Source of the DNA: Clostridia bacterium
Lineage (GTDB): Bacteria > Bacillota > Clostridia > Christensenellales > CAG-138
Length of the DNA: 64,000 nucleotides
Direction: 5' to 3'
Assembly: GCA_017514685.1 (NCBI GenBank)
Contig: JAFWJN010000040.1
Location: 5,056-69,055, forward strand
Shown here: positions 1,699 to 44,385 of the stretch, piece by piece
How the letters are laid out: each line of letters begins with the position of its first letter
How positions within the stretch are numbered: position 1 is the first letter of the stretch
Made by a program: the position numbers and the translations under genes
The notes under the pieces: model-generated
The model's input: only the letters and a program-made list of their open reading frames with translations
Database searches by the model: none
Told to the model about the DNA's origin: nothing

Positions 1699-1730
1699 AA
1701 CCCCATTCAGTTTCTTTTCTGAATGGGGTT
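1699..1730. terminator. 12-bp hairpin between convergent genes (possible terminator of the minus-strand glycosidase gene)
   Basis: AACCCCATTCAG-8 nt-CTGAATGGGGTT. Only a short T run (TTTCTC) on the minus strand. Confidence 0.4.
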
Positions 1731-1770
1731 CATTACAATGATCTTTCTATCCGGTTTTGCAGCGGCTCCG

Positions 1771-2901
1771 TTACCGGACCGTCTCCGTCCCTGCATTTTC
1801 CTGCTGAGATGTGTTATCATGAGGATCGGAAGCCGGTTCTCCGCTGTCTTGTGCCGATTCGGCCATTATGACGGGTTCCGTTATATACAAAATGTCACAG
1901 ATCGAACGGTTCTTTCCCGGATTATTGATGCGGGTTTCGTTCCAGGTCATCTGCGCCGAAACGCCTCCGTCAAGATTATAGGCTGAAACGCATCCAAGGT
2001 CTTTCATTAACTCTGTGAGCTCCTTCAGAGTAAGCCCCACGCTGTATCCTTTCTGCCTTCCATCCACCAGGACGAAGCAGTAATGTCCGGGTTCATAATA
2101 CCCCAGAACCGCTCGGGGATTCTTTCCGTCAATGGAATCCGGGAGATTGTATTTTTTGGGGATAGCGCCGTCTGTATTATACAGAATCGGTCCGAAGTTC
2201 CAAGTCTGCCAGGGTTCTTTTGCGAGAATGGCTTCTTTATTGATTTCCTTTGCCGGAATCATTTCCATCGTGCCATCCTTGTATAAAACGCACATATCAT
2301 ACCGGTACCTTCTGGCATCATAGACCAATTCACCGTCAACCACCGTAAATGCCTTGTCGCCTTTTTCGCAATGATCTCCTGACATGGACAGAATCGCTCC
2401 ATATCTCTGAGCGAGGTCCTTAATCGGTTCATGCGCTTTCCCAAATGCTCCCTGTGACTGACCCCTGCGGAAACTCTCGATGTTCGTAATATAGATATCT
2501 GCGACAAAATACACCAGCGTATTCTTCGTACGCTTATCGTCCGCTACTCTCTTTAATGTAATCGAAACCCTGTCGCTCTTATATTCCGAATCCGTGTAGA
2601 TTACGTTTCCCTGCGAGAAAAACTCTCCGTATGTCCAGGGAAGCAAACCCATTGGCGTTGGAACGGGGCTCGGAGTCGGTGTCGGACTTGGAGTCGGAGT
2701 CGGTGTAGGCGTCGGGGTCGGTGTCGGAATCGGGGTCAGCTCTGCTGTAGGAGGCACCATATTGATTGCTTCAACAACCATGACAGGTGTTTGAGCAGCT
2801 ATTGTCTGACCGGTTGGAAGGACAGTTTCATTTTTCGGCTTCTCAATTGCCGCACAGCCGCAAACAAAGACAACCGTCAGCAAGAAAAAGATCCGTTTCA
2901 T
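1771..2901 (-). CDS. Phosphodiester glycosidase (NAGPA/DUF2233-like) family lipoprotein
   Basis: Internal start MKRIFFLLTVVFVCGC (signal peptide plus lipobox-like Cys) at 2901, a Pro-Thr linker, and a C-terminal AYNLDGGVSAQM-type motif. The longer ORF-track start (3117) would overlap prfB and lacks an SD. Confidence 0.65.
   Translation of the reverse strand: MKRIFFLLTVVFVCGCAAIEKPKNETVLPTGQTIAAQTPVMVVEAINMVPPTAELTPIPTPTPTPTPTPTPSPTPTPSPVPTPMGLLPWTYGEFFSQGNVIYTDSEYKSDRVSITLKRVADDKRTKNTLVYFVADIYITNIESFRRGQSQGAFGKAHEPIKDLAQRYGAILSMSGDHCEKGDKAFTVVDGELVYDARRYRYDMCVLYKDGTMEMIPAKEINKEAILAKEPWQTWNFGPILYNTDGAIPKKYNLPDSIDGKNPRAVLGYYEPGHYCFVLVDGRQKGYSVGLTLKELTELMKDLGCVSAYNLDGGVSAQMTWNETRINNPGKNRSICDILYITEPVIMAESAQDSGEPASDPHDNTSQQENAGTETVR
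2655..2738 (-). repeat. In-frame degenerate hexanucleotide repeat encoding a (Pro-Thr/Ser)n linker
   Basis: GTCGGN-type repeats on the plus strand; translates to PTPTPTPTPTPTPSPTPTPSPVPTP. Confidence 0.8.
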
Positions 2902-4895: not shown

Positions 4896-5696
4896 TTACC
4901 AGTCCGAATCCCAGTCTGTTCCGCCGGAATCCCAGCTGTCATAGTCTGAAGAGCTGGAAGAGTTGCTCTCCTGCAGTGCTTCATACGTGGAAGAATCCTG
5001 GAAATTGCTGATGCCCCAGTCGGATTCATAATCAGTTCCGATGCTGTAATCCTGATATTCGGACACCGGTGCGTCTCCCGGATACCAGTATCCCGCATCA
5101 TTATCCGTATAGGTATAATACCAGTTATCTCCATAATGATAATAGACCGTACTGTCATCGAACTGATAGTATCCGTCATTTTTATGTCTGAGCCTGCTGA
5201 TCCCGCACATGACGGAAGAGAACGCAACGACAAAAGCCAGATAAATCAAAACGAAACGGAGAGCACCTTTGCCTCCTTTTTTTGTGTTGCCTGAACCTTT
5301 ACTTGGAGCTCCATCCGGATAGATTCCCCGGTTATGGCACTCATCCAGAAGTTTTAAAAACAGTTCGTTGACCGCATACTTCTCATCTGGTCCGCGGTAG
5401 CGGATCGCACGGGATCCGTCGGACTTGTTCTTATAAACAATAAACTCGTCCCCTTCGCGATAGATTCCGAACGCTTTCGGTTCCCTGAAATCTTCTCCGA
5501 TGAAGAAGCGCATTCGCAAAAGAGGCATGCCGCGCTGTGCGCAGTATTCCTTCAGTTCCTCAATTGTCTTCGGCAGAAAAATCTGCCGCTCTGTCGGTTC
5601 CACATAATTCGGATTCGGAGCCCCGCAGCTCGGGCATTTCTGATCTTCCGAACTGATGGTTGAACCGCAGTACTGGCATTTTCCAGTTGACGCCAT
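4896..5696 (-). CDS. Zinc-ribbon membrane protein with Asp/Ser/Trp/Tyr-rich C-terminal tail
   Basis: CQYCGSTISSEDQKCPSCG motif, one TM helix (LRFVLIYLAFVVAFSSVMCGI), tail ...DYDSWDSGGTDWDSDW. AAGGAGG SD present. Confidence 0.55.
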   Translation of the reverse strand: MASTGKCQYCGSTISSEDQKCPSCGAPNPNYVEPTERQIFLPKTIEELKEYCAQRGMPLLRMRFFIGEDFREPKAFGIYREGDEFIVYKNKSDGSRAIRYRGPDEKYAVNELFLKLLDECHNRGIYPDGAPSKGSGNTKKGGKGALRFVLIYLAFVVAFSSVMCGISRLRHKNDGYYQFDDSTVYYHYGDNWYYTYTDNDAGYWYPGDAPVSEYQDYSIGTDYESDWGISNFQDSSTYEALQESNSSSSSDYDSWDSGGTDWDSDW

Positions 5697-18674: not shown

Positions 18675-19696
18675 GCTTTTTCTCCCTGTTCCGTTACAAT
18701 GTTAATCAATGGCTTCAAGGATGATAAAGGAATCGTCCGGAAGGAAAAGGAACCGATCTCATCTACTGTAACCACCGACACTTCCCCGCCTGCTGCTTTT
18801 TTATCGTGAATGAGCGCCCTGTAAATTTCTTCCGCGTCAATCGGTGCGGAAACAGGCAGCTTCAGCTTTTTCAGAACAGGCATCAGTCTTTTTTGCACAT
18901 CCTTTGAACACATCGGAATCATTCCCATTGCAACACACTCCCCGTGATACAATCCGAGAGCATGCCCCGCGCTTTCAATCCCGTGTCCGATCGTGTGCCC
19001 GAAATTCAGAACTTTTCTGAGGTTCTGTTCCTTTTCATCCTGTTCGACCACGGCTTTTTTTATCATGACCGAACGGGTAATAATCTCATCCAGGCAGCAG
19101 TAAGGATCCTGCTGCTCAAAAACATCGAACAGTTCCGGATCGGAAGTGATTGACATTTTCAACGCTTCGCAAAGACCGTTTGAAACCTGTCTTCCGGGAA
19201 GAGTTTTCATCGTATCCGGATCGATCAAAACGGCTTTCGGCTGATAAAACGCCCCCACGATATTTTTGATTCCATCCAGATTCAGTGCTGTTTTTCCTCC
19301 GATTGAGGCATCTACCGCAGAAAGCACCGTGGTCGGCACCGAATAAAAATCGATTCCCCGCATATATGATGCCGCGGTAAACCCGGCAAGATCACTGACA
19401 ACGCCCCCGCCGACCGAAACGACACAATCCTTTCTGGAAAAGCCGCATGACAGCATTTTGCTGAGCAGTTTTTCAAAAGCCGAAAGGCTCTTGCTTTCCT
19501 CGCCCTGAGGAACGGTTACAAGATACGGTTCTTTTGCCGCCGCAGCGATTTCTTCAGCATAACACGCAGGAACTCCGCTGTCGGTAACAACCAGTACCTT
19601 CCGGTCAAGGCGGAACAGTTCTCTTGCCCTATGCAGCGCTCCGCGCTCAATCTCAATGGGATAGCTTCCCGTATCCAGATTGATGGGAATAATCAT
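18671..19696 (-). CDS. aroB: 3-dehydroquinate synthase
   Basis: GGGVVSDLAGFTAASYMRGI and NFGHTIGH motifs. ATG 19696 with AAGGAG 9 nt upstream is preferred over TTG 19717. Confidence 0.92.
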   Translation of the reverse strand: MIIPINLDTGSYPIEIERGALHRARELFRLDRKVLVVTDSGVPACYAEEIAAAAKEPYLVTVPQGEESKSLSAFEKLLSKMLSCGFSRKDCVVSVGGGVVSDLAGFTAASYMRGIDFYSVPTTVLSAVDASIGGKTALNLDGIKNIVGAFYQPKAVLIDPDTMKTLPGRQVSNGLCEALKMSITSDPELFDVFEQQDPYCCLDEIITRSVMIKKAVVEQDEKEQNLRKVLNFGHTIGHGIESAGHALGLYHGECVAMGMIPMCSKDVQKRLMPVLKKLKLPVSAPIDAEEIYRALIHDKKAAGGEVSVVTVDEIGSFSFRTIPLSSLKPLINIVTEQGEKA

Positions 19697-19726
19697 GTCG
19701 GCTTTCTCCTTGGACAATAATAGTAA

Positions 19727-19759
19727 GAAAAAACGGTTCCGTCCGAAAACAGAACCGCT
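19727..19759 (-). terminator. Intrinsic terminator (attenuator) inside the aroB 5' leader
   Basis: Minus strand (A)GCGGUUCUG-UUUUCGGA-CGGAACCG(U) followed by UUUUUUCUU. Lies 30 nt upstream of the aroB ATG. Confidence 0.7.
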
Positions 19760-19785
19760 GATAAATGCGCTGAGGTCGGACGGGA

Positions 19786-19863
19786 TTATCTGGTGCGATT
19801 ATAATAGCCCGCTTCAAAACGAACTTCCGCGTACAGATAGGAGCCGAAAAACAGATGTTTCAT
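19786..19863 (-). CDS. Candidate 25-aa aromatic-rich leader peptide MKHLFFGSYLYAEVRFEAGYYNRTR
   Basis: ATG preceded by AAGGAG at 7 nt. Contains 3 Phe and 4 Tyr codons, including FF and YY doublets. Its stop lies 2 nt before the antiterminator 5' arm. Confidence 0.55.
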   Translation of the reverse strand: MKHLFFGSYLYAEVRFEAGYYNRTR

Positions 19864-19896
19864 TTCTCTTCTCCTTTCCTGTCCTGCAATGCAGAA

Positions 19897-19926
19897 AATG
19901 TATCACCTTATATAGGTTTTTGTCAA
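19897..19926 (-). promoter_or_regulatory. Promoter of the aro operon leader
   Basis: TTGACA-18 nt-TACATT with TGn extended -10 (TGATACATT). Confidence 0.6.
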
Positions 19927-19980
19927 GCGTTTTCCCCTATTTCCCGCAGATTCCATCCCGCAGCAAAAGTGCGCTTATAT

Positions 19981-21363
19981 TCAGGCGTTTAAAAGAAACG
20001 CACGATACGCTTTGCAAGCTTCATACAGGTCTGCTTTTGAAATGATCTCCCAGGGCGCATGCATGGAAAGAACCGCCACACCGCTGTCGATTACTTCCAT
20101 TCCGTATGCAGCACAGATGTAAGCGATCGTTCCGCCTCCGCCGACATCCACTTTTCCAAGCTCCGCCGTCTGATACTGAACCCCCGCGTCCTCCATGAGT
20201 TTACGAAGCTTTGCCATATATTCGGCGTTCGCATCATTGGAGCCGCTCTTTCCGCGTGAACCTGTGTATTTATTGAAACAGACTCCCTTTCCGAGAAAAG
20301 CGCTGTTCTTCTTTTCGAAAACCCCGGCAAAATTCGGGTCAAAGCCGGCGCTTACATCGCAGGAAAGCATACATGCGTTTTTAAGAGCACGCCTCAACTT
20401 CAGTTCCGAATATTCTCCGGTCAGGTTCATCAGTTCCGCGATATTATTCTCAAAATATTTCGCATGCATTCCCGTGGCACCGACGGAACCGATCTCTTCT
20501 TTATCCGCAAGAATGCAGCAGCTTGTCCGTTCCGGGACATCTTCTATGGAAAGGATCGCCCTGATCTGTGCAAAAGCGCAGACGCGGTCATCATGACCAT
20601 ATCCCAGAATCATGCTGCGGTCCAGCCCGAGATCCCTTGCTTTTCCAGCCGGTACGACTTCAATCTCTGCAGACAGAAAATCTTCTTCCTCCACGCCATA
20701 CCTATCATTCAGAATTTTCAGAATATTCGCTTTGACAGGCTCCTTTTCCTCATCTTTGAGCGGAATCCCGCCGACGATAACATTCAGGTCCTCTCCCTCG
20801 ATTACCGTTGCGCCTTTTTTCTGGAGCTGCTCCCCGGAAAGGTGAATCAAAAGATCAGAGATGCAGAGCACCGGATCGTCTTCCTCTTCTCCAATGACAA
20901 CATCAATCTTCTCCCCGTCTTTTTTAACGATCACTCCATGCAGAGCAAGCGGAAGCGCTACCCACTGATACTTTTTGATTCCGCCGTAATAATGCGTATC
21001 CAGATAAGCGATTCCCGCATCCTCATACAACGGATTCTGCTTGAGATCCATTCTCGGGGAATCAATGTGTGCGCCGATAATGTTGAAGCCGTTTTCCATT
21101 GGGTTACTGCCGATGATGAACAGCATAATTGCTTTTCCCATGCAATCGGAATAAACACGGTCGCCCGGTCTGAGTGTTTCGCCTGTTTGAATCATTTCTT
21201 TCAAATCCCGGAAACCTGCGTCCTTAGCAAGCCGGATCGCGGCCGTTGTGCATTCCCGTTCTGTTTTTCCTCCGTTCAGAAACAGTTTATATTCTGCTGA
21301 AATCTGCTCCAGTTCTTTTTGTTCGGTTTCGTTATACGTGTTCCAAGCTACATTCCGTTCCAT
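19981..21363 (-). CDS. M18-family aminopeptidase
   Basis: IGAHIDSPR, GYGHDDR and HAPWE motifs, 460 aa. GGAGG SD 5 nt upstream. Confidence 0.82.
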   Translation of the reverse strand: MERNVAWNTYNETEQKELEQISAEYKLFLNGGKTERECTTAAIRLAKDAGFRDLKEMIQTGETLRPGDRVYSDCMGKAIMLFIIGSNPMENGFNIIGAHIDSPRMDLKQNPLYEDAGIAYLDTHYYGGIKKYQWVALPLALHGVIVKKDGEKIDVVIGEEEDDPVLCISDLLIHLSGEQLQKKGATVIEGEDLNVIVGGIPLKDEEKEPVKANILKILNDRYGVEEEDFLSAEIEVVPAGKARDLGLDRSMILGYGHDDRVCAFAQIRAILSIEDVPERTSCCILADKEEIGSVGATGMHAKYFENNIAELMNLTGEYSELKLRRALKNACMLSCDVSAGFDPNFAGVFEKKNSAFLGKGVCFNKYTGSRGKSGSNDANAEYMAKLRKLMEDAGVQYQTAELGKVDVGGGGTIAYICAAYGMEVIDSGVAVLSMHAPWEIISKADLYEACKAYRAFLLNA

Positions 21364-44309: not shown

Positions 44310-44385
44310 GCTCGATTCGTCTAGTGGCCTAGGACACCGCCCTCTCACGGCGGTAACACGGGTTCGACTCCCGTATCGGGTACCA
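44310..44385 (+). tRNA. tRNA-Glu (anticodon CUC), CCA encoded
   Basis: Cloverleaf folded by hand: acceptor GCTCGAT/ATCGGGT (two G-U pairs), anticodon arm CCGCC-CTCTCAC-GGCGG, T arm ACGGG-TTCGACT-CCCGT. Near-identical core to B. subtilis tRNA-Glu. Confidence 0.9.

Follow-up and report, generated by a model that had tools for sequence, protein, structure and literature searches.

A candidate leader-peptide attenuator with Phe and Tyr codons precedes the shikimate operon of uncultured Clostridia

We analysed the region upstream of the shikimate operon in a 64,000-nucleotide stretch (the window) of contig JAFWJN010000040.1 (contig positions 5,056 to 69,055; assembly GCA_017514685.1) from a Clostridia bacterium of the order Christensenellales. 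Here a short leader with an open reading frame (ORF) rich in Phe and Tyr codons lies directly before aroB and is a candidate transcription attenuator. Seven genes follow it, from aroB to a DAHP synthase gene, overlapping or nearly abutting one another (Table 1). The initial annotation had named the shikimate operon as the target, which was right for the aro genes but omitted tyrA and the DAHP synthase gene; the leader is in fact at the head of the entire common aromatic pathway plus the Tyr branch. Upstream of the leader, the gene for an M18 aminopeptidase ends at 19981. The T-run of a hairpin at the end of the leader stops at 19727, only 30 nt before the aroB ATG (19696), which leaves no room for a separate aroB promoter, and the operon must therefore be transcribed through the hairpin.

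All window leader coordinates refer to the minus strand. The promoter TTGACA-18-TACATT, the Shine-Dalgarno (SD) sequence AAGGAG and, 7 nt further, the 25-codon ORF were recovered exactly where the initial annotation had placed them. In a promoter scan the promoter had 10 of 12 matches and a TG-extended -10 element (TG at -15/-14). The ORF encodes Phe or Tyr at codons 5, 6, 9, 11, 16, 20 and 21 (7/25) and no Trp. Just past its stop codon lies Region 2, which has a double role, as the 5' arm of an antiterminator (CCGTCCGA, 19783-19776) and as the partner (TCCCGTCC, 19785-19778) of Region 1 in the 5' untranslated region (UTR). A terminator with a T-run 30 nt before aroB had also been proposed, and only its dimensions needed revision: what had been described as a 7-bp stem with an 8-nt loop is a stronger hairpin, with an 11-12-bp stem capped by a 4-nt UUCG tetraloop and followed by a T-run of T6CTT. 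From promoter to terminator, the unit would yield a transcript of ~165 nt. A further hairpin inside the ORF (19825-19806) is possibly a pause or structural hairpin.

Table 1. Positions of the leader elements, the operon and neighbouring features in the window, and leaders found at related loci
Feature	Position	Strand	Details
Promoter	19926-19897	minus	-35 TTGACA (19926-19921); 18-nt spacer; -10 TACATT (19902-19897)
Region 1, anti-antiterminator strand GGACAGGA	19884-19877	minus	5'UTR; adjoins the SD on its 5' side; paired in MFE structures
SD AAGGAG	19876-19871	minus	7-nt spacer to the leader ATG at 19863
Leader ORF, 25 codons plus TAA (19788-19786)	19863-19786	minus	peptide MKHLFFGSYLYAEVRFEAGYYNRTR
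In-ORF hairpin AGTTCGTT-TTGA-AGCGGGCT	19825-19806	minus	codons V14-G19; seen in all minimum free energy (MFE) structures
Region 2 TCCCGTCCGA	19785-19776	minus	begins 1-2 nt past the stop codon
Antiterminator 3' arm TCGGACGG	19746-19739	minus	inside the terminator hairpin (loop and 3' half)
Intrinsic terminator, stem AGCGGTTCTGTT/GACGGAACCGTT with UUCG loop (19759-19732), then TTTTTTCTT	19759-19725	minus	12 pairs, loop of 4
Regulated operon, aroB to DAHP synthase gene, seven genes	19696-12791	minus	Pfam and NCBIfam
aroB	19696-18671	minus	Pfam/NCBIfam
aroC	18674-17580	minus	Pfam/NCBIfam
aroE/aroK fusion	17595-16312	minus	Pfam/NCBIfam
aroQ	16315-15881	minus	Pfam/NCBIfam
aroA	15959-14670	minus	Pfam/NCBIfam
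tyrA	14695-13832	minus	Pfam/NCBIfam
DAHP synthase gene	13819-12791	minus	Pfam/NCBIfam
Promoter-like site TTGACA-17-TAAGAT, 5' of the T-box	12764-12736	minus
T-box leader, UGG (Trp) specifier GAA-UGG-A	12732-12488	minus	RF00230, 71.8 bits, E 1.3e-15
Terminator-like hairpin, 3' of the T-box	12502-12474	minus
Gene for a TrpB-like pyridoxal phosphate enzyme, downstream of the T-box	12327-10960	minus
Leader in L026 and L036			near-identical to the window leader
Leader in L020-23 and L025			AroB 76-78% identical; peptidase-gene synteny kept; L020-group peptide MNGLFFGSYLYAEVRYEAGYYCRTR
Leader in L024			AroB 79% identical; contig holds the 3' part of the leader only
Leader in L031/32			AroB ~65-66% identical; GTG start; peptide VLRTDFGFDSFAAVRFYAGFYYRTR
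Leader in L040			peptide MQSYCSGSYTGFSAYLYAGRFCRAD
Leader in L041/42			peptide MRSLRSGSYTGFTACAFACRYCRAC
Leader in L030 and L037			upstream of pheA-aroB-aroC...; peptides MNCMQNQITFEGSFYFAQVRFFAGYYFSTKISGVRSAKC and MNKITNNVSNVSFSGSFYCAQVRFFAGYYFSTYNYQKDRA
Second-family leaders	L001:~1740-1895, L006:~140-312, L009:~1715-1889		Eubacteriales-, Acutalibacteraceae- and Ruminococcus-labelled metagenome-assembled genomes

The Phe and Tyr codons were concentrated in the frame of the ORF, with seven in this frame and two in each of the other two. This count was significantly above the mean of 2.6 in dinucleotide shuffles (P=0.0012), and a binomial test against the 7.3% Phe plus Tyr of nine neighbouring proteins gave P=0.0016. 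The 200-nt leader also folded better than shuffled sequences (z=-2.1), and its unconstrained MFE structure was the antiterminator form.

Three competing pairings can form in the leader RNA: Region 1 with Region 2, Region 2 with the loop and 3' half of the terminator (the antiterminator), and the terminator itself. As the initial annotation had proposed, the antiterminator arms are perfectly complementary, with CCGTCCGA and TCGGACGG forming eight Watson-Crick pairs without mismatch. The anti-antiterminator pairing of GGACAGGA with TCCCGTCC had been missed in that annotation. The Region 1:2 duplex was estimated at about -11 kcal/mol and the antiterminator duplex at -16 kcal/mol; the whole antiterminator domain (-19.1 kcal/mol) and the terminator (-15.5 kcal/mol) proved to be alternatives of similar energy, as had been expected. 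To follow the competition between them we folded transcripts shortened to mimic transcription in progress, with a 28-nt mask for the ribosome. In this model, the antiterminator was the MFE structure of the window leader once TCGGACGG had emerged, in all ribosome states but one. The exception was a ribosome whose A site is at the stop codon, which was predicted to cover Region 2, so that the antiterminator was abolished and only the terminator formed. When the full terminator was present, the antiterminator was still the predicted MFE structure for stalls at Y20/Y21, and stalls at F5-F16 favoured the terminator together with Region 1:2 by a small margin.

The leader has an ORF with an SD, enriched in codons for the products of the operon, a terminator ahead of the first gene, an antiterminator that excludes this terminator, and a Region 1:2 pairing; on every feature testable in silico it belongs to the class of attenuators. 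In our judgement it is highly likely that the element is a ribosome-mediated (leader-peptide) transcription attenuator, which senses charged tRNA-Phe and tRNA-Tyr and controls the seven-gene operon from aroB to the DAHP synthase gene. Transcription would start ~7 nt past TACATT, and the ORF would be translated during synthesis of the transcript. When Phe and Tyr are plentiful, a ribosome reaching TAA would cover CCGTCCGA, 2 nt past the stop, and the UUCG-capped terminator would end transcription near 19727. A ribosome stalled at Phe or Tyr codons, best modelled for the Y20-Y21 doublet, would leave CCGTCCGA free to pair with TCGGACGG as it exits the polymerase, before the 3' arm of the terminator is complete, resulting in read-through into aroB. 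If the leader were not translated, GGACAGGA in the 5'UTR could sequester Region 2, and termination would be favoured. We infer that the ORF is translated, that ribosomes stall on it, that the terminator is active and that a stall would somehow hold Region 1 away from Region 2. A peptide with Phe and Tyr and without Trp fits the products of the operon, which are chorismate and Tyr (and Phe where pheA is present).

Related loci (given here by L numbers) were gathered by protein search and contig look-ups, and all of the lineages are metagenomic. Among GTDB species representatives AroB had no close relative, the best match being 60% identical. A homologous leader was found in at least seven further lineages with AroB 65-79% identical (Table 1), each with a GGAG-core SD 6-9 nt from an ATG or GTG, an open frame and a terminator. 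The promoter, TTGAC(A/T)-17/18-TACATT or TACAAT, was present in L020, L031, L040, L041, L030 and L037, and conservation among the relatives started sharply at the -35 hexamer. The initial annotation had asked whether a mini-ORF with Phe and Tyr codons persists in relatives, and it did so in seven further lineages, with in-frame insertions and deletions only. Its length was exactly 25 codons in five lineages and 39-40 codons in two; every change in length, among them an inserted GAA and extensions at the N and C termini, was a multiple of three. Phe and Tyr codons numbered 7, 7, 8, 6 and 4 of 25, 9 of 39 and 10 of 40, and their positions shifted between lineages, with swaps of Phe for Tyr and the reverse. 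A 33-codon ORF with 8 Phe or Tyr codons and a terminator was also found in L018. When the window and the uncertain L018 were included, 7 of 8 scored ORFs had 6-10 such codons and L041 had 4. Enrichment specific to the ORF frame was seen in seven leaders (P 0.0008 to 0.035 vs shuffles). The leader of L041 (L041:2341-2418), which has only 4 Phe or Tyr codons, has 5 Cys codons (MRSLRSGSYTGFTACAFACRYCRAC); these could reflect drift from TAY to TGY or a change in what is sensed.

The three-way pairing was recovered in 6 of 6 lineages examined (window, L020, L031, L040, L030 and L037), with comparable energies and differing sequences. An equivalent of Region 1:2 was present in L020 and L040, and in L031 it was a perfect 10-bp helix, UUCGGACGGG/CCCGUCCGGA, at -21.4 kcal/mol, stronger than in the window. 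L030 and L037 show the classical trp/phe arrangement: the codons for S-F-Y-F/C-A-Q within their ORF contain Region 1, and the final codons of this longer ORF contain the antiterminator arm. The antiterminator arm of L037 and L040 pairs with the 5' arm of the terminator, not with its 3' half. The leader of L031 carries the motif (C)UUCGGACGG three times (L031:2310-2345; 5'UTR, ORF codons 2-4 and terminator), and all three copies are complementary to its Region 2 CCCGUCCGGA, which therefore has three alternative partners there.

In all of these lineages the leader is directly 5' of aroB or of pheA-aroB, in otherwise differing neighbourhoods. The hairpin is not the terminator of the upstream gene, because in L031, L040 and L041 the leader lies in a divergent intergenic region. 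A unit with its own promoter and terminator and a ~165-nt transcript might instead be an independent small RNA gene, or encode a 25-residue protein with a function of its own, that merely lies 5' of aroB, and the conservation of the non-aromatic residues G7, A12, V14, R15, A18, G19, R23 and T24 would suit such a product. Against this, aroB has no promoter of its own and the operon must cross the terminator, the unit is always joined to aro or pheA genes, the conserved non-aromatic codons overlap RNA helices, and the peptide has no database relatives outside these leaders. An independent gene therefore has very little chance of being the correct explanation. The same residues, with R25 added to give R23-T24-R25, could mark a nascent-chain arrest element.

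The loci with pheA bear on the origin of the leader. A tblastn search with PheA found no pheA gene in the 64-kb window, and the mini-ORF could be imagined as the decaying remnant of a pheA 3' end (ACT-domain motif ...RSRPMKDLPWHYYFYAEVEG...), in which case its aromatic richness would be inherited and the hairpin fortuitous. Indeed, pheA abuts aroB in 16 of the 19 GTDB relatives retrieved, the Met of MKDL and the leader ATG are equidistant from the aroB ATG, and an ungapped alignment has 10 of 25 identical residues, YAEV among them. Yet the PheA motif matches the aromatic residues at just 2 of 7 positions, this stretch reached only E=3.4 when PheA was searched against the window by unbiased tblastn, and the offset differs in other leader-bearing lineages. 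In L030 and L037, moreover, pheA is intact and has the homologous leader on its upstream side, and the strong purifying selection described below is not decay. We rejected the pheA relic, a barely credible reading that is largely refuted by L030/L037, the tblastn result, the shifted offsets and the constraint. The likeness of the leader peptide to the PheA ACT motif MKDLPWHYYFYAEVEG (e.g. L004:2834-2910) was judged coincidental, and an ancient origin of the leader from a pheA fragment is still just conceivable. The simplest history is an ancestral leader-pheA-aroB... order from which the window lineage later lost pheA; a gain of pheA by the L030 lineage is the alternative.

We compared the leader with neutral sites in the same genomes. 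Between the window and L020, identity is 76% for AroB and, at four-fold degenerate sites, 48% (aroB) and 45% (peptidase gene); it reaches 86% in the leader ORF and 95% (56/59) in the segment from its stop codon to the T-tract. Between the window and L031, four-fold sites are saturated (31% identical), and both CCCGTCCG and the 25-nt terminator core GCGGTTCTGTTTTCGGACGGAACCG are 100% identical. This core was invariant down to an AroB identity of 65%, and Region 2 was invariant in the window, L026, L020-25, L024 and L031. Judged by these comparisons, the leader is under strong purifying selection as a control region. Pair changes in the terminator were read by hand from only ~6 distinct sequences, with Region 2 misaligned by MAFFT, and comprised one double compensatory change, from U-A in the window group to C-G in L030/L037, and several G-C/G-U or U-A/U-G transitions among lineages.

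Conservation as RNA raises the question of whether the ORF is incidental and the leader is a structured cis-regulatory RNA, either a riboswitch or a protein-binding leader. Region 1:2 would then be the P1 helix, which a ligand or protein (responding, e.g., to Phe, Tyr or prephenate) would stabilise to favour the terminator. The topology does resemble that of an OFF riboswitch, in that the 3' strand of the P1-like helix is also part of the antiterminator, and the motif (U)UCGGACGG occurs three times in L031. Synonymous ORF sites and the internal hairpin are also conserved as nucleotides: the arms GUUCG/GCGGGC of the RNA hairpin AGUUCGUU-UUGA-AGCGGGCU (19825-19806) recur in L020, L031, L030 and L037, including at third codon positions. 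In contrast, the would-be aptamer is not conserved in its 5' half (62% identity between the window and L031 from SD to stop), whereas ORF length and aromatic content are kept. A properly spaced SD and start codon are present in 8 of 8 lineages, all insertions and deletions are in frame, and the Phe/Tyr enrichment is found only in the ORF frame. Furthermore, L030 and L037 lack the P1 helix of the 5'UTR and have Region 1 on Phe and Tyr codons instead, and no Rfam family matched. We consider a structured RNA with an incidental ORF quite improbable.

Several observations weigh against leader-peptide attenuation, or at least against its simplest form. The Phe and Tyr codons are dispersed and do not form a tandem run, and L041, with only 4 of 25, is not significant alone. 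Compared with L020, third positions have changed in just 3 of 21 codons for identical residues, against an expectation of about half; because synonymous ORF sites are far more conserved than neutral ones, some of the conservation of the ORF is attributable to RNA structure and not to coding. Among the closest lineages the antiterminator arms do not vary and so show no covariation, and only L030, L037 and L040, with their versions in a shifted register, give comparative support for this helix. The covarying stems that the initial annotation had asked about were found in the compensatory change of the terminator and in the shifted register of the antiterminator, but not in the antiterminator arms of the closest relatives. 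Equilibrium folding of L020 and L031 gave the terminator wherever the ribosome was stalled, owing to a small advantage in stability of either the Region 1:2 helix or the terminator in these leaders, and the dependence of the antiterminator on ribosome position was only partly reproduced by the model. The switch by ribosome position proposed earlier was thus borne out in modelling of the window for the stop-codon and Y20/Y21 states, but not for these two relatives. This result implies that the switch would be kinetic, or would need Region 1 to be masked by ribosomes that are queued or initiating; such masking during stalling is a conjecture. Finally, the sampling is small, with eight lineages, all of them metagenomic.

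One extension of the attenuation model would make use of such masking. Behind a ribosome stalled at a distal Phe or Tyr codon, others would line up as far back as the start site; one of these, queued or initiating, would mask Region 1 and free the antiterminator arm, so that the ORF would serve as a ruler for a ribosome queue. This would fit the 25-codon subgroup, which has its anti-antiterminator strand at the SD in the 5'UTR and an ORF fixed at 25 codons despite saturated synonymous divergence. We regard the queue as unlikely; if true, attenuation would read ribosome traffic and not the position of one ribosome.

The element was distributed patchily, since L027 and L028 (AroB 64-67% identical) had promoters and no leader ORF, and the Lachnospiraceae-labelled loci L004-L017 had no convincing Phe/Tyr leader upstream of pheA. 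A metagenome scan for CCCGTCYG-N-TGTTTTCRGACGGAAC returned one near-identical contig (L036) and three unrelated hairpins (L033-35). The latter share a conserved hairpin, CCCGTCCGCGAA...TGTTTTCGGACGGAAC (L033:2921-2972, L034:661-712, L035:226-277), unrelated to the leader, which we take to lie in the spacer between hemB-like and hemL-like haem-biosynthesis genes of another organism. A leader-peptide profile searched against 5.8 billion proteins matched only one near-identical 39-residue ORF, as expected because such short ORFs are seldom called as genes. A second, unrelated family of Phe/Tyr-rich leaders was found upstream of pheA(-aroB) in L001, L006 and L009 (AroB 53-59% identical), with the peptides MFFNAYFYYFTKDCSSALNV, MFFNTNFSYFYFFIKDCSCTLNV and MFVFINQYFYYFKKDCSSALNA. 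Each of these leaders has a promoter, an SD, an in-ORF GGACUGC complementary to a downstream GCAGUCC, and a terminator.

Downstream of the operon, a T-box leader with a Trp specifier precedes the gene for a TrpB-like enzyme (Table 1); its 71.8 bits are below the Rfam gathering score of 93, and a default scan at gathering thresholds missed it. The absence of Trp codons from the leader peptide fits a division of labour in which the trpB-like gene has its own Trp T-box. The sole gathering-level Rfam match in the window was a tRNA gene at 44310-44382 on the plus strand. The aroE-aroK fusion protein has 427 residues in the window, and a fusion of ~410 residues is also encoded in L020, L024, L027, L031, L040 and L041. 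In L037, a called ORF of 47 residues without a Pfam match (L037:3490-3633) lies between aroB and aroC, with a 4-nt overlap with both.

The T-box is the usual tRNA-sensing terminator/antiterminator switch of aromatic amino acid genes in Firmicutes. In contrast, the aroB leader is too short (~165 nt), has a translated-looking ORF in place of a specifier loop and did not match the T-box model even at E<=10. A scan of 19400-20300 with Rfam 15 at E<=10 gave nothing relevant, only chance-level matches to SR6 antitoxin (E 0.82) and RAGATH-35 (E 9.3), and the leader falls outside the curated Rfam leader families (Phe, Trp, His, Thr, Leu, Lactococcus leu/phe and T-box). Likewise, at gathering thresholds, 16 related loci had no T-box or other Rfam family upstream of pheA or aroB, and our literature searches turned up no description of a Phe/Tyr leader for the Clostridia shikimate operon.

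Ribosome-mediated attenuation itself is known. In E. coli and other gamma-proteobacteria, pheL, a Phe-rich short ORF with alternative hairpins, controls pheA by ribosome stalling (PMC3082878; PMC11802643). The window leader is like pheL-pheA in its short aromatic ORF and its antiterminator and terminator, and L030 and L037 also have pheA as first gene; there is no similarity in sequence or to the Rfam model. Whereas pheL has runs of Phe, the window leader has a dispersed mix of Phe and Tyr, and its target is the whole common pathway plus tyrA in a Clostridium-class Firmicute. The 25-codon subgroup further differs in that its anti-antiterminator strand is in the 5'UTR at the SD and not inside the ORF, and its antiterminator arm lies just past the stop with the terminator loop and 3' half as partner. 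The closest functional analogue appears to be the aroR leader peptide (Phe-Tyr-Phe) of C. glutamicum, which attenuates the aroF operon, with only Phe limitation reported as active in the summary of Neshat et al. 2014 given in PMC11802643. To the extent of that summary, it is a Gram-positive leader with Phe and Tyr for a shikimate operon and the resemblance is functional only, since aroR is from Actinobacteria, has a shorter aromatic motif and precedes a DAHP synthase gene as first gene.

In Acholeplasma, the uORFC-13-1 motif upstream of aroF is a predicted upstream ORF with Phe codon(s), a promoter, a ribosome-binding site and an adjacent intrinsic terminator (PMC8632094). Compared by description only, it shares with our leader an ORF and a terminator before a shikimate gene in a Firmicute-related lineage; it differs in lineage and first gene, and in having a U-run coding for at least one Phe where the leaders described here have 6-10 dispersed Phe or Tyr codons. 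Attenuators of the his-leader type have been predicted in Eubacteriales, Erysipelotrichales and the B. cereus group (PMC9413887), and a Leu-rich attenuator peptide has been shown for the ilv-leu operon of S. aureus (PMC5794164). Leader-peptide attenuation therefore exists in Firmicutes, including Clostridia, for other amino acids and operons and with unrelated sequences. Given these and the Gram-positive shikimate cases, the premise of the initial annotation that such attenuation is foreign to Firmicutes was too strong. What is new is a conserved, unannotated Phe/Tyr leader for these genes in this group.

Taken together, no principle is overturned, as analogues exist in E. coli, Corynebacterium and, by prediction, Acholeplasma. 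The two new leader families could be turned into covariance models for genome annotation, and a compact switch responsive to Phe and Tyr may be of use for synthetic biology in anaerobes. With this finding, the shikimate operon of uncultured Clostridia from gut and rumen gains a well-conserved control element that had not been annotated. The element would place the common aromatic pathway and tyrA, as well as pheA in relatives, under leader-peptide attenuation, next to a Trp-branch gene with a T-box. Most likely, a shortage of Phe or Tyr would turn on the aromatic amino acid pathway in this uncultured gut Clostridium.

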